From a virus, in IMG/VR virus record IMGVR_UViG_3300022670_000072, positions 1-36,941 of that record: a stretch of 36,941 bases of DNA, one strand, 5' to 3'. Below, piece after piece: positions 2,729-36,724 of this stretch. The translations under genes were made by a program, and so were the position numbers. The number at the start of each line of letters is the position of its first letter. Within the stretch, counting starts at the first letter, position 1. The notes under the pieces were generated by a model. The model ran no database searches. It saw only the letters and a list, made by a program, of their open reading frames with translations, and was not told the origin of the DNA.

Positions 2729-3354
2729 TGGCTATAGCTGACTTTGATGAACTGCAAAAAGAGATTGTCGAATGGTCGCACCGTGGCGATTTAGGTAAAA
2801 AGATAATCACCTTTATACAGCTAGCTGAAAACGCTATGTACTCAAATGACCAAGAAGTGCTAGCCGTTAGAAGTATGGAAACCGTATCGACTGCCGCGAC
2901 TGCTGGTCAGTATGTAGAGTTACCGCCTAACTTTGAATCAGCGCGCAGTATTAGATTGGTTACTGGTGATAATGGCGGCGAATTAAGATTCCAAGCGCCC
3001 GAGCAAATGCACAAGCATGTTGCTACAGGTCGACCAACTTTCTTTACTATTGTAGGTAATGAAATTCAGCTAGATAGAGTGCCTGATTCCGAATACACAT
3101 TAGAGATTCAATACTACCGTAAAGCCACAGCACTGAGTGATAACAACTTAACTAATGAAATACTAACCAGCCATCCAAGTATCTATCTATTTGGCGCATT
3201 GACCGCCCTATTCAGTTATTCACAAGATACCGAGCAGCATTTAAAATATAACGGTATGTTTATCAGTGCCATCAAAGGCGCAAACAAAGCAGATAAAAAA
3301 GGTCGTTACGGGCCAGCTCCAGCAATGAGCCTTGACCGTGGGATGATAGTATGA
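2728..3354 (+). CDS. Head-tail adaptor protein (putative, P22 gp4 position)
   Basis: 208 aa. The pattern ...EIVEWSHRGDL...FIQLAENAM...YVELPPNFESARSI...FFTIVGNEIQLDRVPDSEYTLEIQYY...HPSIYLFGAL resembles phage adaptor/connector families. It lies directly upstream of the gp10-like gene. Confidence 0.6.
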   Translation: MAIADFDELQKEIVEWSHRGDLGKKIITFIQLAENAMYSNDQEVLAVRSMETVSTAATAGQYVELPPNFESARSIRLVTGDNGGELRFQAPEQMHKHVATGRPTFFTIVGNEIQLDRVPDSEYTLEIQYYRKATALSDNNLTNEILTSHPSIYLFGALTALFSYSQDTEQHLKYNGMFISAIKGANKADKKGRYGPAPAMSLDRGMIV

Positions 3355-4781
3355 CCTTTCAAACAATACCCGTACAAGTTACGGGGCCATCATATCAAAG
3401 CAGGTCTAAGCCTTTATCAAGTCAGGTTACACAAAGCTGGTACCCTCAACTTAGCGAGCTAGGCAAAGACCAATTTGTATTAATGCCATTCCCAGGGCTT
3501 AAAGTATCAGGTAGTGCGGCAGGTATTGATCGCGGCTTTAATCGTATGGCTGAAATATTATATCAAGTCAAAGGTACTTCACTGTATGAGATTGACAGGC
3601 TAGGCAATCACACCTTGCGAGGCACTATACCTGGCACTGGTCGCGCTATTATTGCCAACGATGGCATTAATATGTTTATCGTTGCAGACTTAAAGGTCTG
3701 GAAATACACGACCGACACCAATGCAGTGACCGAAGTTACCAACGTAAATATTACAGGTGCAAAGTCCGTTGATTTCTTTAACAACCAATTCATTTACACG
3801 TTTGATAAATTTTCCACTGTCTCAGATGTTGGTAACGGTGGCGAGGCTAGCGGTTTAAATATCATTGGCGAGGAAACTTTGCCAGATGATTTAGTAAGGG
3901 ATTATGTATTTGACGAAGTTATTTATCGTTGTGGTGTTCGCTCTATTGTTGGTTGGTACAATTCAGGTATTGGCGCGCCTCCTATTGCTAAGCTACAAGG
4001 CCGTATATTTACTGTTGGCCTCGCTGCTATAAACTCAATAGACCAAACTGACCAAGCATTTTACTGGTTAGGTGATGATTTTTCTATATATCGATCATCA
4101 GCCGGTAGAGAAGAAAGAATAAGCACCGATGCAATATCAAACGAGATTCAAAAATATTCAAGAGTTGACGATGCTATCGGTAATACGTTTACATTTGAGG
4201 GCCAAAACTTCTACTCGATAACCTTTCCTTCAGGCAATAAAACATTTGTCATTAGTGAGCTGTTAGGCGTTAACGGTTGGTTTGAATTATCTTCAGGTGT
4301 TAATAACCCCAATCAATCAAGCAAATATCAAGGCACATCAATCATTAGTGCTTATGGTAAAAACTTTGTCGCTGATGTTGATAACGGTAACGTTTATGAA
4401 TTAGATTTAAATGCCTTCACCAATAACGGCGAACCATTGCAGCGCATCAGAGTAACACAGGCCGCAAACGGTGACTTACTTGGCGCCAAAGGTAAGCTAA
4501 TTCAAATGTCATGCTTAAAGCTAATCATGGAGACTGGTGTCGGTGTAATTGACGGTCAAGGGGATGACCCTCGTATTATTATTGAATACAGTGACGATGG
4601 TGGCAGAACATGGAACGCTGGCTCATGGCCTAGAGTTGGGCGATTGGGTGAGTTTACGTTACAAGTCGAATGGTTTGATTTAGGTTCTTTTTATGATCGT
4701 ATATTTCGCATATCAACCACTGACCCTGTAAACTATACGATATATTCAGCAACTATTGATCTTCGACTTGCAGGTAAATAA
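3351..4781 (+). CDS. Tail hub / packaged-DNA stabilization protein (P22 gp10-like)
   Basis: 476 aa, compared with 472 aa for P22 gp10. The C-terminus ...YSDDGGRTWNAGSWPRVGRLGEFTLQVEWFDLGSFYDRIFRISTTDPVNYTIYSATIDLRL parallels the gp10 C-terminal pattern. Gene order also agrees. Confidence 0.7.
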   Translation: MTFQTIPVQVTGPSYQSRSKPLSSQVTQSWYPQLSELGKDQFVLMPFPGLKVSGSAAGIDRGFNRMAEILYQVKGTSLYEIDRLGNHTLRGTIPGTGRAIIANDGINMFIVADLKVWKYTTDTNAVTEVTNVNITGAKSVDFFNNQFIYTFDKFSTVSDVGNGGEASGLNIIGEETLPDDLVRDYVFDEVIYRCGVRSIVGWYNSGIGAPPIAKLQGRIFTVGLAAINSIDQTDQAFYWLGDDFSIYRSSAGREERISTDAISNEIQKYSRVDDAIGNTFTFEGQNFYSITFPSGNKTFVISELLGVNGWFELSSGVNNPNQSSKYQGTSIISAYGKNFVADVDNGNVYELDLNAFTNNGEPLQRIRVTQAANGDLLGAKGKLIQMSCLKLIMETGVGVIDGQGDDPRIIIEYSDDGGRTWNAGSWPRVGRLGEFTLQVEWFDLGSFYDRIFRISTTDPVNYTIYSATIDLRLAGK

Positions 4782-8374: not shown

Positions 8375-9591
8375 TGGCAATCGACCCTAGAATAGCGCTA
8401 CAAGGTCAAGTAGCAAGCATTGCACCAGCTATAAATATATTTGAAAACGCATTGATGAACGCTCAAACGCGAGATATCAGAGCGCAACAAGCACAACGCG
8501 CCCAAGAGTTAGTACCTTTTCAATTACAGCAAGCACAGCAAGGTGTTGATATTAATCAGCAGACTCTAAATCAAAATAGAGACACGCAACGTTTAACTAA
8601 CCTGCATCAAACAGGGCAACGCTTAAAGCCTTTCCTTGAAAGTAACGATATACAAGGCGCACAACAATTCTTGCTTGATAACATCGCTCAAATACAAACA
8701 CGTATTGAGCAGGGTTCAGGCGAAGACGTTACCGAGTCAATGGAAACGTTAGCCAAGTTACAAACCGGTGATACTCAAGGTGTACTAGGTGATATTGAGG
8801 CGGTTTCTAGTTTAGTAAATCAAAGTAGTGCCACAGCAGGCCAAAGAGAATTTACTTCTCTAACTACCGGATTATCAGAAGAGGACAAAACAAAAGCGGC
8901 GCGGATTAAATTAAGATTAGACGCAGGTGCCTCATTAACTGGTCAAGAGCGAATAGCTTTAAATAACGAGCTAGGCGAAAAGGTTGTCAAACAATTAGAA
9001 GCGGAAGCCGGAGCTAAAGAGGGTGGAAAACTTAAGCAGCAACGCAAACATCTACCAACACTAAGAAAAGAAATTAAACTAGCAGAGACGGCAGCGGCAG
9101 AGCGAGGCGAGGTATTAACAGACTTATCCAGAATGAACGCAGGTCTACCAGGCCTATTAGATGCGGTAGCTCAGTTAAAAGAGTTATCTGCATTAGCTAC
9201 TAGTAATTTCTTAGGTGGGGTTTTTGACGCAGCGGTAAAACAGACAGGCTTCGGATCAACAAAAGGCTCTACAGCTAAAGCTAAAATGGTGGCAATTATA
9301 GCCAACCAAACACTACCTTTATTAAAAGAAACTTTCGGCTCTGCATTCACTGAGGCAGAGGGCGCAAGGCTAGAAGCTTCATTTGCAAATCCAGATTCCA
9401 CACACGAAGAAAGGCTAGCTCAGTTAGATGCGTTTATAGACCAAAAAACAAGAACAATAAAAGCAAAAGAAACTCAGTTAGGTGTTGTACCAACAGAAAG
9501 CGCAAATAATGCCGATGTTCCAGATGTTGATATTTCAACGCTATCAATCGAAGAGTTAATTGCAGAAAGAAACAGACTAGGTGGTCAATAA
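8374..9591 (+). CDS. Internal virion / ejection protein (putative, gp20 position)
   Basis: 405 aa, Gln-rich and helical. It has ATG/stop overlaps on both sides within the structural operon. Confidence 0.55.
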   Translation: MAIDPRIALQGQVASIAPAINIFENALMNAQTRDIRAQQAQRAQELVPFQLQQAQQGVDINQQTLNQNRDTQRLTNLHQTGQRLKPFLESNDIQGAQQFLLDNIAQIQTRIEQGSGEDVTESMETLAKLQTGDTQGVLGDIEAVSSLVNQSSATAGQREFTSLTTGLSEEDKTKAARIKLRLDAGASLTGQERIALNNELGEKVVKQLEAEAGAKEGGKLKQQRKHLPTLRKEIKLAETAAAERGEVLTDLSRMNAGLPGLLDAVAQLKELSALATSNFLGGVFDAAVKQTGFGSTKGSTAKAKMVAIIANQTLPLLKETFGSAFTEAEGARLEASFANPDSTHEERLAQLDAFIDQKTRTIKAKETQLGVVPTESANNADVPDVDISTLSIEELIAERNRLGGQ

Positions 9592-22797: not shown

Positions 22798-23397
22798 TTA
22801 ATACTCGCTTATTTTATAGTTAAGTAATGCTGATTTAAGTGGTTCGGTTTGTTGTAGTGCTACACCTGCTATTAGTTTGTATTTGTAATCACAGTAAGCG
22901 TTGTGAGCTTCTTGCTCTGTAATAAAAACCCCCAAGTGAACTTGTTTTCGGTTTCCGTCGTTACAGATAGATACAAACTTATTTCCGCTCTTGCTGGATG
23001 TTACTCCTACCTTGTACTTTCCTCTCAATGATTTTCTTGTTGTGGTTAATGTGTTTATTTTCTTATCCACAAAAATACAATATAAAGGCGAATAGATTTT
23101 ATTTCCTTGCGTGAGTAGATCTTTATCCAGCTCTTTACCTTTCCAATCCTGCTTTTCCATCCACTCTTTAAAGTTAGAGAATGTTAACCACTCACTACAA
23201 ACGGTGCACCCTTTATATGTTGGTTGTCTAGATTGGTATTCGCTTGAGTAACATCGCCTTAACATACCAACCCACCTACCGTAATAATTGCAAATGACAT
23301 TGCCGTTGGCTGATCTTGTTAATACCTTATAGTCTGCGTCATTTATACCTACACCTTGAACTAGGGACTTTCTGACCGCTAATGACTTTCTTAACAT
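22798..23397 (-). CDS. AP2-domain DNA-binding protein of the HNH/homing-endonuclease-associated family
   Basis: 199 aa. The N-terminus is GVGINDADYKV...CNYYGRWVGMLRRCYS...CTVCSEWLTFSNFKEWM. The C-terminus KYKVGV...NKFVSICNDGNRKQVHLGVFITEQEAHNAY is an AP2-type sheet plus helix. Confidence 0.6.
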   Translation of the reverse strand: MLRKSLAVRKSLVQGVGINDADYKVLTRSANGNVICNYYGRWVGMLRRCYSSEYQSRQPTYKGCTVCSEWLTFSNFKEWMEKQDWKGKELDKDLLTQGNKIYSPLYCIFVDKKINTLTTTRKSLRGKYKVGVTSSKSGNKFVSICNDGNRKQVHLGVFITEQEAHNAYCDYKYKLIAGVALQQTEPLKSALLNYKISEY

Positions 23398-32669: not shown

Positions 32670-32697
32670 AAAAGCCCACTTCGATTGTGGGCTTTTT
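32670..32697. terminator. Bidirectional intrinsic terminator
   Basis: AAAA-GCCCAC-ttcgatt-GTGGGC-TTTTT, between the convergent large terminase gene and the reverse-strand island. Confidence 0.75.
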
Positions 32698-32858: not shown

Positions 32859-33041
32859 TCAAACCCTCTTCTTTTTAAAGCTAGCATTACCACCAGTACT
32901 ATTACCAAGGAACTTAGGTGCGGTTATAACTCTTACAGCTTCAGTGCCACAGTTACAAAAAACCAGCCTTACATCATTAGTAACTAGCCTATCGAATACA
33001 GTGCCAGATTCTTGACACTTAAAGTCTTTAAATATTTTCAT
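32859..33041 (-). CDS. FmdB-like zinc-ribbon protein (first knuckle degenerate)
   Basis: 60 aa. ...FKCQESGTVFDRLV...VFCNCGTEAVRVITAPKFLGNSTGG follows the layout of CxxC_CxxC_SSSS-type proteins. Confidence 0.45.
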   Translation of the reverse strand: MKIFKDFKCQESGTVFDRLVTNDVRLVFCNCGTEAVRVITAPKFLGNSTGGNASFKKKRV

Positions 33042-33246
33042 TTGGAAACTCCTTTCTCATATCAACACCCCTAGCAACGCGCTTAGTTAGCTTGTAATCA
33101 GTCACGATACTAAAACCTAGATAACCGCATGCTTGACAACCTTGGTTAGTGCGATTGATACATGAGCAACTAACTCTAGCTGCGCTTGATTTAACATCAA
33201 ACCCTAACGCATCAATAAGCGCGTCTAATTTCTTTTCGATAGTCAT
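33028..33246 (-). CDS. Cys-rich hypothetical protein
   Basis: 72 aa with SCSC...GCQACG. AGGAG precedes the ATG. Confidence 0.5.
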   Translation of the reverse strand: MTIEKKLDALIDALGFDVKSSAARVSCSCINRTNQGCQACGYLGFSIVTDYKLTKRVARGVDMRKEFPNENI

Positions 33247-33257
33247 TTAACAATCTC

Positions 33258-33335
33258 CTAAACCGTTGGCATTGTCATAACGCACACCGCTATGATAACT
33301 AATGCGGCTATGCTGAATTTATTAAACTTGTTCAT
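33258..33335 (-). CDS. Hydrophobic micro-ORF (25 aa), speculative
   Basis: MNKFNKFSIAALVIIAVCVMTMPTV. The ATG lies inside the end of the upstream gene, and the stop lies inside the next gene's AGGAG site. Confidence 0.3.
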   Translation of the reverse strand: MNKFNKFSIAALVIIAVCVMTMPTV

Positions 33336-33546
33336 TATCTGCCTCTAAATAATCCGCTATCATTTCATCAATACCTACAGCCTCACAGTGTGAATCAAAC
33401 TCATCAACAACTAAAAAATCATCACCGAATTTATAATCATGGTGACCATTCTCTATAATAAGATGCTTAATCTTTGTTAAGGTGTCCGGTGTAGCCTCTT
33501 TAGTGTCCACATGAATGTAAAATTGTTCAATCTGATGTACAGTCAT
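33322..33546 (-). CDS. Strongly acidic small protein
   Basis: 74 aa with about 18 Asp/Glu against 4 Lys/Arg. Confidence 0.55.
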   Translation of the reverse strand: MTVHQIEQFYIHVDTKEATPDTLTKIKHLIIENGHHDYKFGDDFLVVDEFDSHCEAVGIDEMIADYLEADNEQV

Positions 33547-33685
33547 TGTTATTATCCTTGTTATGTTTCTGGTTTAATCGCCATTGTTTATTCTTACAAG
33601 TATTACCGCAATACTCTTTGCGCTCAGTACCCCAGAATTCTTTTTCGCATTCAGGCCAAGCGCATTGTTTTTTAGTTATTGCCAT
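33527..33685 (-). CDS. Zinc-finger protein (52 aa from ATG 33685)
   Basis: MAITKKQCAWPECEKEFWGTERKEYCGNTCKNKQWRLNQ... carries CxxxxC...CxxxC. The ORF track extends it to 33745, inside the upstream gene. Confidence 0.5.
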   Translation of the reverse strand: MAITKKQCAWPECEKEFWGTERKEYCGNTCKNKQWRLNQKHNKDNNNDCTSD

Positions 33686-33956
33686 TGCTACAACCCGTTG
33701 CTTTGCTAAATAAAGCCTTTTCACAATCATTAAAAGTCTTGGCATTCATAACCAAGCCTTTAGGTGTTTTAAATATCTGCCCGTCCTTTAAAACCTCTGT
33801 AAGCGTTTTTACTTCCTTGGTTGCTGTAAATGGGGTGAATGGTCGTGTAAATAATCTTTCCTTCCACGTGCGCTTTACGTTTGATGTTGTTAGCACTGGA
33901 TCGGATATCGTAACTGGTACGCCTTGGGTTGATAATGGTATATAGCTATTGAGCAT
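33672..33956 (-). CDS. Hypothetical protein (first gene of the reverse-strand island)
   Basis: 94-aa ORF. GGAG is upstream, and the candidate promoter lies 30-60 nt upstream. Confidence 0.55.
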   Translation of the reverse strand: MLNSYIPLSTQGVPVTISDPVLTTSNVKRTWKERLFTRPFTPFTATKEVKTLTEVLKDGQIFKTPKGLVMNAKTFNDCEKALFSKATGCSNGNN

Positions 33957-33986
33957 TTCTTTTATTCTCCATCTGATTAATTAACT

Positions 33987-34016
33987 ACAGTATGACTCAG
34001 TACCGTCACAAGTCAA
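33987..34016 (-). promoter_or_regulatory. Candidate sigma70-type promoter for the reverse-strand island
   Basis: The minus strand reads TTGACT (34016-34011), an 18-nt spacer, then TACTGT (33992-33987). Confidence 0.5.
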
Positions 34017-34022
34017 CACTAT

Positions 34023-34051
34023 TTGTTAATTAAATCGCAATGCTGTATAAT
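34023..34051 (+). promoter_or_regulatory. Near-consensus sigma70-type promoter facing the non-coding region
   Basis: TTGTTA (34023-34028), an exact 17-nt spacer, then a perfect TATAAT (34046-34051). Confidence 0.6.
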
Positions 34052-34057
34052 TGATTC

Positions 34058-34161
34058 TGTTGATTGGCGTGAGACCCTGAGCAGCAGATAAGGTTTAGTA
34101 TGCGTATTTGCGGTTATTAAGTTAATCCGGTCTCAACAGATACGCGCACTAAGCCTTTTTT
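34058..34161 (+). ncRNA. Candidate small RNA of about 100 nt (promoter, long imperfect hairpin, U-tract)
   Basis: 34090-34110 pairs with 34137-34157 over 21 positions (17 Watson-Crick, 3 G.U, 1 mismatch). TTTTTTGTT follows directly. There is no credible ORF inside. Confidence 0.5.
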
Positions 34162-34180
34162 GTTACCTAGAATCCCGCAT

Positions 34181-34210
34181 TAATCTGTATTAATCTGTAT
34201 TAGTCTGAGT
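34181..34210 (+). repeat. Three tandem 10-bp units
   Basis: The units are TTAATCTGTA, TTAATCTGTA and TTAGTCTGAG. The reverse complement AATACAGATTA occurs at 34311-34321. Confidence 0.85.
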
Positions 34211-34311
34211 AGCCCCGTGTGGAATGGGTGTTGTACCAGTCGCAATGGTTGAGTCATTAAACGCTAATAGAAGAGTTTATAATTTAGGTTCGAATCCTAA
34301 TGCTCAGACCA
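34205..34311 (+). ncRNA. Non-canonical tRNA-like element (107 nt) with a canonical T-arm and an encoded ACCA
   Basis: The T-arm is TTAGG-TTCGAAT-CCTAA (34284-34300), followed by TGCTCAG-A-CCA. The 5' CTGAGTA (34205-34211) pairs with TGCTCAG. A D-arm-like CCCG-TGTGGAA-TGGG lies at 34214-34228. The region between the D- and T-arms is 55 nt, which is too long for a normal tRNA. Confidence 0.5.
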
Positions 34312-34657
34312 ATACAGATTACCAACCAACCGATTTAATTCGGGCTTTCGTAACAAATCCGCATAACTAGCTAAGTTTTTAAAGTAGCAAATATCGAATA
34401 CTTAGTATTAATCGACTTTTAGACACGAGAATAAACAGCATTTTCTGCATGGTATATGGATTGGGCTTCCAACAAGGATTGTGAATAGCTAGCTGATACT
34501 GATTTAATACTACTTGATATAAACTAAGCACACTTACTCATCCATGCAGTAACGTGTCTAATGATACTTATTGCCTACATTTAACACCTATTATGAATTA
34601 ACCTTAAACAATGCTAAAATAAACAAAACGAATTCAACAACGCCTGAGTAATTATTA

Positions 34658-36724
34658 ATGCCTAAGATGACAGACCCAGAGCTAGTTGCTCTACTCTCTC
34701 AAGCTAAAGAACAAGCCGCTATCTTTAACGGTGAATTCATGCGTGAGAACACTAAGTTTTTATCTGCTTATTTAGGTGAGAAAACAGGCGAGTTTAGCGC
34801 TATACCAAATCAATCAAGCGTTGTGTCAACTGATATTGCTGATGTAATTGAGGCAGACATGCCTAGTCTCATGCGTATATTCTACGGCTCAGGCGATGTA
34901 GTAACATTTCAAGCGAACACTGAAAACCCAGTGGAAGTTCAAGAGGCGGAAGAAAAGACCAAGTATGTTAATTGGATTTTAAGGAATCAGCCTGAATCAT
35001 TTATGATGTGGCACTCTTGGCTGAAAGATGCTGAGATTCAAAAGAACGGTGTTGTTAAATACTTTGTTGATGAGCAGAAAGAAGTTGACGAAGTTAGATT
35101 TACAGGTGTTGACTTTGACGAGTTAAACACAATCGTTGAAAGCTTAAACGATCCAAACGTTATAAAAACAGAGATTACCGAGCAAGAAGAAACAAGCCCA
35201 GGCGTTTGGGATTTAAGTTTTAAAGTCACGCGCGAAACTAAAAAGATTTGTGTTCTTAATATACCTCCTGAATCCTTCTTGATATCACGTAACGCTAACA
35301 GTCTTGAAGATGCTGAATTAGTTGGTGATAGAGTTAGAAAGACTCGCGGTGAGTTGTTAGCGGAAGGCTTCAAGAGAGATTTAATCGATCAACTAACATC
35401 AGTTGAAGAAGAAGATAATCGGACATCAAATATAAAAGCAGTTCGTGATCGTGACCAAGGTGGCAACAACCCCAATGAGTCTATTAATGATTGGGCTAGT
35501 CAGTACGTAGAAATATCAGACCTGTATGTCAAGATTGATTTTGATGGTGATGGTATCGCAGAGCGCAGACACGTAATGATTTCAGGTAACAAGGTGTTGG
35601 TTAACGAATACTTTAACCATGTTCCGTATGCTTCATTATCAGCTATCTTGATGCCTCACAAAGCTATTGGCCGAAGTCGCGCAGAAGTAACGTATTCGAC
35701 ACAATTACAGAAAACAGCATTAGTGCGTGGCATGAATGATAACATTCGCATCTCACAAAGACCTCGTAATGTTGTTCATGGCGATGTTGATCTCGATGAC
35801 ATGTTAACCTATCGAGATAACGGTATTATTAGGTTGGATGATGAGTCCACTATATTACCCCAGCAAGCAGTGATGCCTTTGGTTATTCCATACACTGGCG
35901 ATAAAACCTTACAAGTTATTCAATATGTAGATGGAGCAAGGGCGCAAACAACCGGCACTAACATGGCTAATCAGAGCTTAGATGCTGACTCAATAGGCAA
36001 GGAGACAGCAACTAGATTTAATGGTATCGAGGCTAAAGGCGATGAGAAGATGGAGCTTATAGCCCGTAACTATGCCGAAACCGGAGTACGTAAGCTTTAT
36101 AGCGGTATTGCATGGCTAGCGTCAAGATTCCAAGATACACAGGCGGAATTCATGGTACTTGGCAAGCCTTTAACTGTTAACCCTACAAAATGGAAGTTTG
36201 AACATCAAATTCAAACCAATGTCGGCTTAGGTGCTGGCAATAATGAGAAGTCAATCGAAAGCTTACAAGGTTTGTATGCTATTCAACAGCAGTTAAAAGC
36301 AACACAATCACCGCTCGTTGATGATAAAGATATTTACAACACGTTAGCCCGTATCACTGACGGTTTAGGATTCCCACGCACTAACGAATTCTTTAATAAT
36401 CCTGAAGAGCCTGACGAGTTACTTCGCCATGAAAACGAGCAGTTAAATGCTATCGGCTTACAGCAGCAACAAGCTATTGAGCAGCTAACAGAGCAACTTA
36501 GGCAGTTAAGCGCACTATCAGAAGTTGAAGAGAAGAAAGTAGCAGGTAAGGCAGAGTCAGATAATAAGAAAGCAGCTTTAGAAATTGCCAAACTTTCAGA
36601 GAATCAGCGCCAATTCAATATTGATGCAACGCAAACAGCTAACAAACAGCAATCAGATGAGGCTTTAGCAGTGACTAAATTGGAATTAGATAACGAAACA
36701 GACTTACCAGGTGGATTAGCATGA
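34658..36724 (+). CDS. Portal protein
   Basis: 688 aa, the second-largest head-module gene. It lies upstream of scaffold and capsid. The long C-terminal Gln/Glu-rich coiled-coil tail (...QQQQAIEQLTEQLRQLSALSEVEEKK...) resembles the P22 portal barrel. Confidence 0.9.
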   Translation: MPKMTDPELVALLSQAKEQAAIFNGEFMRENTKFLSAYLGEKTGEFSAIPNQSSVVSTDIADVIEADMPSLMRIFYGSGDVVTFQANTENPVEVQEAEEKTKYVNWILRNQPESFMMWHSWLKDAEIQKNGVVKYFVDEQKEVDEVRFTGVDFDELNTIVESLNDPNVIKTEITEQEETSPGVWDLSFKVTRETKKICVLNIPPESFLISRNANSLEDAELVGDRVRKTRGELLAEGFKRDLIDQLTSVEEEDNRTSNIKAVRDRDQGGNNPNESINDWASQYVEISDLYVKIDFDGDGIAERRHVMISGNKVLVNEYFNHVPYASLSAILMPHKAIGRSRAEVTYSTQLQKTALVRGMNDNIRISQRPRNVVHGDVDLDDMLTYRDNGIIRLDDESTILPQQAVMPLVIPYTGDKTLQVIQYVDGARAQTTGTNMANQSLDADSIGKETATRFNGIEAKGDEKMELIARNYAETGVRKLYSGIAWLASRFQDTQAEFMVLGKPLTVNPTKWKFEHQIQTNVGLGAGNNEKSIESLQGLYAIQQQLKATQSPLVDDKDIYNTLARITDGLGFPRTNEFFNNPEEPDELLRHENEQLNAIGLQQQQAIEQLTEQLRQLSALSEVEEKKVAGKAESDNKKAALEIAKLSENQRQFNIDATQTANKQQSDEALAVTKLELDNETDLPGGLA

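Follow-up and report, generated by a model that had tools for sequence, protein, structure and literature searches.

A conserved non-decoding tRNA-like RNA carried as an optional hairpin cassette in a portable leader of a lambdoid-type podovirus genome

Phages are known to carry tRNAs, and tRNA mimics such as transfer-messenger RNA (tmRNA) and YrlA are known from bacteria. Folds of this kind also act as processing signals in longer transcripts or occur among the small stable RNAs of phages, as in the mascRNA at the 3' end of MALAT1, the species 1 and 2 RNAs of the T4 tRNA cluster and the C4 RNA of phages P1 and P7, which is an RNase P substrate. Optional hairpins may also interrupt a structured RNA, and the intervening sequences (IVSs) of bacterial 23S and 16S rRNA are reportedly excised by RNase III, in work attributed to Burgin et al. 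from 1990. In the YrlA of M. smegmatis a stem closes the tRNA-like domain, and in vivo the RNA is cleaved by RNase P and has CCA added (PMC4201824). The large structured RNAs GOLLD and ROOL of phages and prophages often adjoin tRNAs, with which they are possibly co-transcribed (PMC5737381). Here we have analyzed a tRNA-like element found on the plus strand at 34191-34321 of the virus record IMGVR_UViG_3300022670_000072 (the window in what follows, that is, the whole stretch of 36,941 nucleotides). The element is part of a hairpin cassette contained in a longer non-coding leader. A conserved tRNA mimic that does not decode and that plugs as a hairpin cassette into a mobile structured leader is undescribed in Rfam 15 and in the papers that could be searched.

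The element is a real, conserved RNA that resembles the top half of a tRNA and does not decode (Table 1). It retains the top half and the elbow of a tRNA, with a 7-bp acceptor, a canonical T arm, a D-like loop containing GG, an A at the discriminator position and a CCA in the sequence itself. In place of the anticodon arm there is a long interrupted helix, and the arms are separated by lengthened linkers. The base of the cassette is a helix of 11-14 bp conserved in sequence, UARUCUGUAUU/AAUACAGAYUA. The initial annotation, made from the letters alone, had already recognized the T arm, the ACCA, the acceptor strand and the D-like hairpin in a molecule of 107 nt (34205-34311) with 55 nt between the D and T arms, and all of them were found again at the same positions. 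It had also described a helix extending beyond the acceptor stem, between 34191-34211 and 34301-34321; inspection of the sequence and RNAfold agree on 20 of 21 paired positions, with A34202/C34310 as the lone mismatch. The fold obtained for 34181-34325 reproduces this layout at -43.3 kcal/mol (z = -4.4, equalled by 0 of 200 shuffles). The trimmed 107-mer also gives the five-arm fold, at an unremarkable energy (z = -1.1). The three tandem 10-bp repeats reported around the 5' arm of this helix are recovered by Tandem Repeats Finder (TRF) as 2.9 copies; the last two copies form the 5' closing arm together with the first part of the acceptor, and the first is an extra specific to the window, the homologues having just the arm.

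Two other details of that annotation fared less well. The anticodon arms that it proposed at 34230-34246 and 34244-34258 both break in the homologous loci L047 and L001a. In the arm given in Table 1 the four core pairs are 100% paired in the window, L047 and L001a, with two of them changed on both sides. Among the linker pairs, 34229/34256 and 34232/34253 are kept in the three sequences and 34230/34255 in two, and the loop, GTCGCAA both in the window and in L047, reads GTCATAA in L001a. The second complement of the acceptor strand, CTGAGCA at 34077-34083, is indeed present; its significance did not hold, the closest homologue, L047, having CTAGATA there with an unchanged acceptor strand, and it is best treated as chance. 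A 48-aa open reading frame (ORF) that overlaps the element (34224-34370) was rejected as coding: the homologous ORF in L001 carries a 1-nt indel and the substitutions in the stems are compensatory.

Table 1 Features of the non-coding region before the portal gene, in window coordinates
Feature	Positions	Strand	Details
Portable non-coding module (promoter, leader, tRNA-like cassette, downstream structured RNA)	34020-34586	+	
Sigma-70-type promoter TTGTTA-17-TATAAT (predicted)	34023-34051	+	Consensus scan 10/12; conserved in L064 and L047
Leader hairpin with a U-run at its end, resembling a terminator or attenuator	34084-34163	+	Stem 34090-34107 x 34140-34157, then UUUUUU
Tandem repeat, 2.9 copies of the 10-bp unit ATTAATCTGT	34179-34207	+	TRF
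Closing (outer) helix, 5' arm TAATCTGTATT-AGT	34191-34204	+	Pairs with 34308-34321
Acceptor stem, 5' strand CTGAGTA, U at -1	34205-34211	+	7 pairs with 34301-34307, including the U6.G67 wobble
D-arm-like hairpin CCCG-TGTGGAA-TGGG, GG in loop	34214-34228	+	3/4 pairs changed on both sides (window, L047, L001a), 100% paired
Anticodon-arm equivalent, extended interrupted helix	34229-34257	+	Core ACCA 34235-38 / TGGT 34246-49, loop GTCGCAA
Variable-arm-like hairpin TAAAC-(12 nt)-GTTTA	34258-34279	+	5 pairs, 100% paired; U-A to C-G in L001a
T arm TTAGG-TTCGAAT-CCTAA	34284-34300	+	Stem 97.5% paired, 2/5 pairs changed on both sides; T loop invariant in 7/8 members
Acceptor stem, 3' strand TGCTCAG	34301-34307	+	Directly 3' of the T arm
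Discriminator A and CCA (34308-34311), running into the 3' closing arm AATACAGATTA (34311-34321)	34308-34321	+	
Small hairpin H2, AACCGA-TTTAA-TTCGGG	34328-34344	+	Homologues gccaagttaattggt, gccgatgttctcggt, accgaattttctcggt
Pseudoknotted downstream RNA, ~240 nt (structured 34322-34574)	34403-34574	+	Ends in conserved CTAATGATACTTAT

Homologues of the element were recovered by pattern scans of IMG/VR and of metagenomes, in about ten uncultured phage contigs, mostly marine; BLASTN of the region against the GenBank phages gave no match. A tRNA-like interior was found in L047 (from TARA), L001a, L053, L056, L050, L039/L049, L052 and L094, and the same closing helix with another interior in L001b, L055, L059, L060, L062, L063, L066 and L058. 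L057 (inside an ORF) and L061 (low-complexity) were excluded as doubtful. A looser scan for the T-loop pattern yielded 51 stretches of which, besides the known L001, L039 and L056, only L094 has the 5' arm, and the rest were discarded as chance matches on ordinary tRNAs. In the eight tRNA-like members compared, the 25 pairs of the closing helix, acceptor and T stem are 93.5% paired, and 10 of the 25 have changed on both sides; none of 500 shuffles matched any of these measures and the slid controls were 30-39% paired. The acceptor stem has compensatory changes in L053 (CTAAGTA/TGCTTAG), L039 and L052. Furthermore, all 13 pairs of the D-, anticodon- and variable-arm-like hairpins are kept in the window, L047 and L001a, six of them changed on both sides. 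A covariance model (R1) made from six homologues, leaving the window out, found 34191-34321 on the plus strand with 110.2 bits (E = 7e-22) and the minus strand with 41.5 bits, and located no second copy in the window. The functional structured RNA that had been proposed is thus borne out, the acceptor, T and D-like stems and two further hairpins having been maintained through compensatory changes.

The closing helix is also kept in sequence, as TARTCTGTATT/AATACAGAYTA, in every member of the family. At its position 3 we found A-U, G-C or G.U and never A.C on the plus strand. Actually, in ten loci there is a G.U where the opposite strand would give A.C and the reverse was never seen, indicating that the strand that folds is the transcribed (+) one. 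A D-like loop containing GG was found in 7 of the 8 tRNA-like members. The ACCA is present in seven of ten (the window, L047, L001a, L053, L056, L050 and L039), with differing pairing partners, and absent from L052, L001b and L094. Its conservation while the partners vary points to a role of the CCA end itself and, together with the conserved GG, suggests selection on this end as well as on the elbow.

In the wider family the interior is swapped and the closing helix remains, and the apical part goes from near-tRNA (37 bits) to non-tRNA. It is therefore the closing helix, and not the tRNA-like core, that is conserved across the wider family, something that goes beyond the initial annotation, as does the finding that the element is a discrete optional cassette in a portable module of ~550 nt. 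ARAGORN and Rfam, run on 13 to 18 of the family loci, returned nothing except the real tRNAs of L063 and L058, the L050 member and the L049 one. The L050 member scores 37 bits on the Rfam tRNA model, more than the gathering score requires, and ARAGORN calls it as a tRNA whose anticodon stem is poor; the L049/L039 member is near the threshold with 28.2 bits. The real tRNA genes are directly upstream of the cassette, three in L063 (Pro-TGG, Leu-TAA and Leu-TAG; 602-845) and one in L058 (Trp-CCA; 3339-3413), which suggests co-transcription with a phage tRNA cluster. In L053 the hairpin preceding the cassette (807-907, GUGUCUG...CAGACAC) has a T arm, CTAGG-TTTGATT-CCTAG, by its 3' strand, making it a second tRNA-like element. 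The corresponding hairpin is plain in L001 (minus strand, 3866-3920), and in L063 and L058 the slot is filled by the real tRNAs. Taken together, the near-tRNA members, the upstream tRNA genes and the T-arm hairpin of L053 make a tRNA origin likely. In addition, L060 (6113-6212) and L001 (minus strand, 95-215) contain tandem paralogous hairpins in which the inner helix GAGUGAGUUA/UAGCUCAUUC is kept and the closing helix differs, being CAGUCUGUUUAUA/UAUAAACAGAUUA and AUCUACAUA/UAUGUAGAU.

The initial annotation had listed a divergent phage tRNA among its options, and such a tRNA could still be functional, charged with an amino acid and active in translation. The 7-bp acceptor on a 5-bp T stem, the TTCRANY-type T-loop, the discriminator, the CCA and the GG in the D-like loop are all as in tRNA; the covarying loop GUCGCAA has a U at position 2 and A at positions 6-7, and the L050 member passes the Rfam tRNA threshold. 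However, instead of a 5-bp anticodon stem with a 7-nt loop there is a 4-bp core extended through internal loops into an arm of ~10 layers, about twice the normal five. The linkers measure 6, 8 and 4 nt versus 0-1 nt in tRNA, the total is 107 nt, the loop triplet is CGC or CAU in close homologues and other members have no anticodon loop at all. ARAGORN found 0 tRNA and 0 tmRNA genes in the window, where Rfam gave no match at the gathering score and, in E-value mode, a partial tRNA match with 16.7 bits (gathering score 29; model positions 7-64). On the ~10-layer arm, the long linkers, the differing triplet and these negative results a decoding tRNA was rejected, and we find the functional tRNA hardly credible. 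A tmRNA was rejected too, on the negative ARAGORN and Rfam results and on acceptor strands only 89 nt apart.

Another option raised initially was a Y-RNA-like module. It would be a scaffold in which the closing helix binds a protein of the Ro60/Rsr type, or another one, and the tRNA-like module recruits an effector, as in YrlA. The layout is the same, a variable D- and T-arm module closed by a sequence-conserved stem of the 5' and 3' ends, and YrlA-like RNAs have been reported in phages (PMC4201824). Against it, the Rsr-binding motif GNCGAAN0-1G is absent from the 15 family members searched with a regular expression, and with thresholds of up to E = 10 Rfam matched no Y RNA family. All window ORFs of at least 80 aa not inside a longer ORF were scanned with Pfam, which was confined to the window, and with PHROG, and they gave no TROVE protein. 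No neighbour protein recurs when the ORFs within 5 kb on either side are clustered over 16 loci. Membership of the YrlA family was accordingly discarded for lack of the Rsr motif and of a TROVE gene or recurrent neighbour, and a scaffold of this sort seems improbable to us.

The limits of the cassette are revealed by two loci, L065 and L064, that have the same flanks as the window with exactly 34179/81-34321 missing. In L065 a leader and terminator of the window type run straight into H2 and the downstream RNA (87% identical to 34327-34586), and L064 has a promoter of the window type (33960-34059, 83%), the downstream RNA (34369-34586, 94%) and then structural genes. This precise absence indicates that the tRNA-like hairpin, with its own 11-nt inverted repeat, is a discrete optional unit. 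In L039 and L050 the cassette is found by itself, immediately ahead of a start codon. The L039 phage has a TerL 74% identical to that of the window and a short-core cassette located ~7 kb upstream of TerL and not before the portal gene (908-2401, 9309-9405), so that related phages hold the cassette at different sites. Its distribution is patchy, as expected of an accessory unit, and hypervariable small genes adjoin it in most loci.

Such behaviour might be that of a selfish mobile hairpin or a DNA-level recombination site, with ends similar to those of miniature inverted-repeat transposable elements (MITEs) or of attachment (att) sites, the interior being a decaying captured tRNA and the RNA inert. 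Presence and absence are precise at the boundaries of the inverted repeat, whose ends measure 11 bp; the contexts are many and unrelated, unrelated interiors occur too, and the ends are conserved in sequence beyond what pairing demands. Nevertheless, five helices are maintained by compensatory changes, three of them in the interior, and the G.U/A.C asymmetry always favours the transcribed strand. Furthermore, no target-site duplication is visible when filled and empty sites are compared, and no neighbour protein recurs across loci. The scanned window ORFs contain no integrase, recombinase, transposase, reverse transcriptase, RNA ligase or nucleotidyltransferase domain, in agreement with the lack of an integrase pointed out in the initial annotation. 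To our knowledge there is no convincing resemblance to XerCD/dif-like sites or to insertion sequence ends. We consider a selfish or DNA-level origin unlikely.

A related possibility, also among the options of the initial annotation, is a relic of an integration site, recognizable by identity to the 3' end of a host tRNA or tmRNA gene. The check that the initial annotation had named for it came out negative. The 3'-terminal 21-mer GGTTCGAATCCTAATGCTCAG has no exact match in one genome per species of 185,579 species (near-identical matches were not searched and the host is unidentified), and this also counts against a DNA-level element. Unlike a tRNA 3'-fragment relic, the element has both acceptor strands and all the arms. 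An att relic is not shown by these data. The family pattern scan of genomes hit a single one, that of Ferrimonas balearica, where an ordinary tRNA has AATACAGATTA after it; by our own estimate chance alone would give about one hit of this kind. This locus (L054, NZ_JAHVHW010000012.1, minus strand, about 1650-2270) contains two ordinary tRNA genes and then three tandem copies of the last ~26 nt of the tRNA. The second tRNA and each of the copies are followed by AATACAGAYTA and a terminator hairpin, and the 15-mer GACCAATACAGATTA is common to the window. The repeats of the tRNA 3' end followed by AATACAGAYTA would suit a DNA-level explanation, and the locus could be a sign of a tRNA-trailer motif, or of an att core, among marine gammaproteobacteria.

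The cassette is embedded in a larger module that seems to travel as a whole. The stretch 34020-34573 is 73% identical to L047, which has no protein in common with the window, and nhmmer aligns 34188-34586 to L001. Conversely, the relatives of the portal gene (L002-L037, 60-86% identity) have only 34590-34637 in common with the window, and in L008 there is just ~130 nt of intergenic DNA before the portal gene. Its presence in L047 without common proteins and its absence from the portal relatives indicate that the module is portable. The predicted promoter at 34023-34051 is probably used as such. The leader hairpin that comes after it corresponds to the small-RNA candidate that had been noticed upstream of the element. 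The fold of 34058-34170 reaches -35.3 kcal/mol (z = -3.0), and the hairpin is homologous in L047 and L065. As modelled, it looks like a terminator or attenuator that would need read-through to reach the cassette and the portal gene.

At the other side of the cassette there is a second structured RNA, which may be more novel than the tRNA-like element itself. H2 is directly 3' of the leader in the cassette-less L065 and L064. The downstream RNA has three long-range helices, Pa (34403-14 x 34500-12), Pb (34419-27 x 34553-61) and Pc (34445-52 x 34542-49), and a hairpin at 34461-72, and the order of Pa, Pb and Pc makes it a pseudoknot. Covariation in Pa was detected by RNAalifold. Both Pa and Pb are formed by seven of seven homologues with differing sequences, and Pc forms clearly in five of these and weakly in the other two, L001a and L063. 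No Rfam family matches this RNA. Its conserved end, CTAATGATACTTAT, sits just before the ribosome-binding region of whichever gene comes next.

A second type of leader is found upstream of the cassettes of L053, L055, L056, L059, L060, L066 and L001, with a small hairpin GCAG-UGUGAAGA-CUGC at its beginning, immediately after a promoter of the TTGAAA/TAAAAT type. The sequence CCCUUUCAAAGCWUCU is immediately 5' of the cassette in these leaders, and the arrangement seems to resemble boxB/boxA (nut-like) signals.

The location of the cassette could also mean that it is a cis-regulatory part of the leader, controlling the portal operon through antitermination, attenuation or translation, the tRNA mimicry being incidental or serving to sense a tRNA-binding factor. 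It is always downstream of a strong promoter and, in the loci with the full module, of a terminator-like hairpin, genes on the same strand come downstream of it, and many loci have a conserved boxA/boxB-like arrangement upstream, CCCUUUCAAAGC and then a hairpin. Yet the same leader exists without the cassette, the window and L047 do not have the CCCUUUCAAAGC motif and the genes downstream differ between loci, so that we take a cis-regulatory role as distinctly improbable.

The reading that we favour, with a probability of roughly 55%, is that 34191-34321 (+) is a non-decoding mimic derived from a tRNA, carried as the cargo of a hairpin cassette and cut out of the leader through the action of RNase III and RNase P. 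Transcripts reading through the leader would carry the cassette. RNase III would cut the continuous helix of ~21 bp formed by the closing helix and the acceptor stem, much as in the excision of rRNA intervening sequences, and the freed acceptor end would permit RNase P to cleave 5' of C34205, where position -1 is a U. Trimming by 3' exonucleases up to the CCA at 34311 would then leave a stable CCA-ended tRNA mimic of 107 nt, and on the other side the 5' end of the downstream RNA or of the portal mRNA would be a processed one. Such a mimic might engage putative proteins that read the acceptor, T arm and elbow of tRNAs. The released RNA might act as a decoy, as a scaffold or do nothing, each of which is possible.

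Several points weigh against this reading. The use of the promoter, the read-through of the U-run and the cleavages by RNase III and RNase P are all presumed, and the covariation tests are limited to 3 to 8 related sequences. The CCA is paired within the closing helix, which would hinder RNase P unless another cut precedes it. The apical domains of L055, L059, L063 and L066 are not tRNA-like, indicating that the generic role of the cassette needs no tRNA mimicry, and the persistence of the module without it in L064 and L065 means that the cassette could be selfish or dispensable. Besides, RNase III has little sequence need and does not explain why the sequence of the closing helix is conserved, which hints at a sequence-specific partner.

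A tRNA mimic or decoy was the remaining option of the initial annotation. One particular use of the released RNA would be to serve in trans as a decoy or sponge for host defences or toxins directed at the acceptor ends or elbows of tRNAs, such as CCA-modifying toxins or tRNA-cleaving effectors, and the variable cargos would then reflect an arms race. This would fit a conserved acceptor stem, ACCA and elbow with an anticodon region free to vary, and an accessory and patchy distribution, like that of anti-defence genes, next to hypervariable small genes in most loci. The literature search gave no such described RNA decoy in phages and several members are missing the CCA or the T arm, for which a decoy appears rather unlikely. 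A broader and tentative idea, which we hold to be possible though well short of even odds, is that of a new phage RNA system. It would consist of a portable multi-domain leader with a pseudoknotted core of ~240 nt and interchangeable cargo hairpins with a sequence-specific closing helix. The hairpins would be excised by host RNases, or by a partner that reads UARUCUGUAUU/AAUACAGAYUA, to release small RNAs such as the CCA-ended tRNA mimic.

If the favoured tRNA mimic is really excised and stable, it would be a compact natural example of a phage using the tRNA-processing enzymes of the host on its own transcripts, and a candidate RNA decoy for host factors directed at tRNA, and it would open the way to a second RNA, the pseudoknotted domain further downstream. 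The broader system, if true, would amount to cassettes that operate at the RNA level and supply tRNA mimics in the course of infection. The natural alleles with (window, L047) and without (L064, L065) the cassette make the question directly testable.

The window is the genome of a lambdoid-type podovirus, with proteins such as NinG, a lambda-P-like protein, Erf, YqaJ, RdgC, a capsid and adaptor of SU10 type, TerS, TerL and portal. TBLASTN with the portal and capsid proteins found only relatives at 30-45% identity, from which no host could be inferred. The element is found in a non-coding gap of 700 nt (33957-34657) between a minus-strand cassette of small ORFs and the portal gene (34658-36724). 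A strong intrinsic terminator (32670-32696) comes right after TerL, followed by the minus-strand cassette of five small ORFs (32859-33956), one of them zinc-ribbon-like, of which only the first (32859-33041) is common to the portal relatives. With this terminator and the minus-strand cassette in between, the structural genes appear to need the promoter at 34023. In the early region there is also a gene for a free-standing HNH endonuclease (22798-23397, minus strand; PHROG 953, E = 1e-77), for which no link to the cassette was found.

Among the described systems, tmRNA has in common with the element the acceptor stem and T arm, the encoded CCA and the lack of an anticodon; here there is no tag reading frame, no ring of pseudoknots between the acceptor strands and no G3.U70, and ARAGORN and Rfam were negative. 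Canonical tRNA (RF00005), in particular class II with its long variable arm, shares the 7-bp acceptor, the 5-bp T stem with a GGTTCGAATCC loop, the GG of the D-like loop, the discriminator A with CCA and the five-arm topology, reaching 37 bits in L050. The element of the window differs by its partial match of 16.7 bits, its too long linkers and ~10-layer interrupted anticodon helix and its burial in a helix of leader and trailer. With mascRNA, the T4 RNAs and C4 it shares a non-decoding tRNA-like fold inside a longer transcript, a fold that would attract RNase P and thereby set where the adjacent RNAs end; there is no sequence relationship, and those RNAs have neither a conserved closing helix nor cassette behaviour. 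As in GOLLD and ROOL, a structured RNA, here pseudoknotted and of ~240 nt, comes after the tRNA-like element or after real tRNAs, but it is much smaller, has another fold and matches nothing in Rfam.

With YrlA the element shares a module of D and T arms held in a stem of the RNA ends and a non-canonical anticodon arm, and the YrlA family is reported in some phages (PMC4201824). The differences are the lack of GNCGAAN0-1G, of a nearby rsr/TROVE gene and of an Rfam Y RNA match, a CCA that is encoded and a conserved stem of unrelated sequence. The rRNA intervening sequences differ in that here the host RNA is a phage leader, the cargo is tRNA-like and the excision is only proposed. They share the optional and patchy hairpin insertion in a structured RNA, the long closing stem (21 bp with the acceptor) and the precise presence or absence between relatives. 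By analogy, these parallels with the rRNA intervening sequences and with the YrlA of M. smegmatis would favour the excision of a CCA-ended mimic of ~107 nt.

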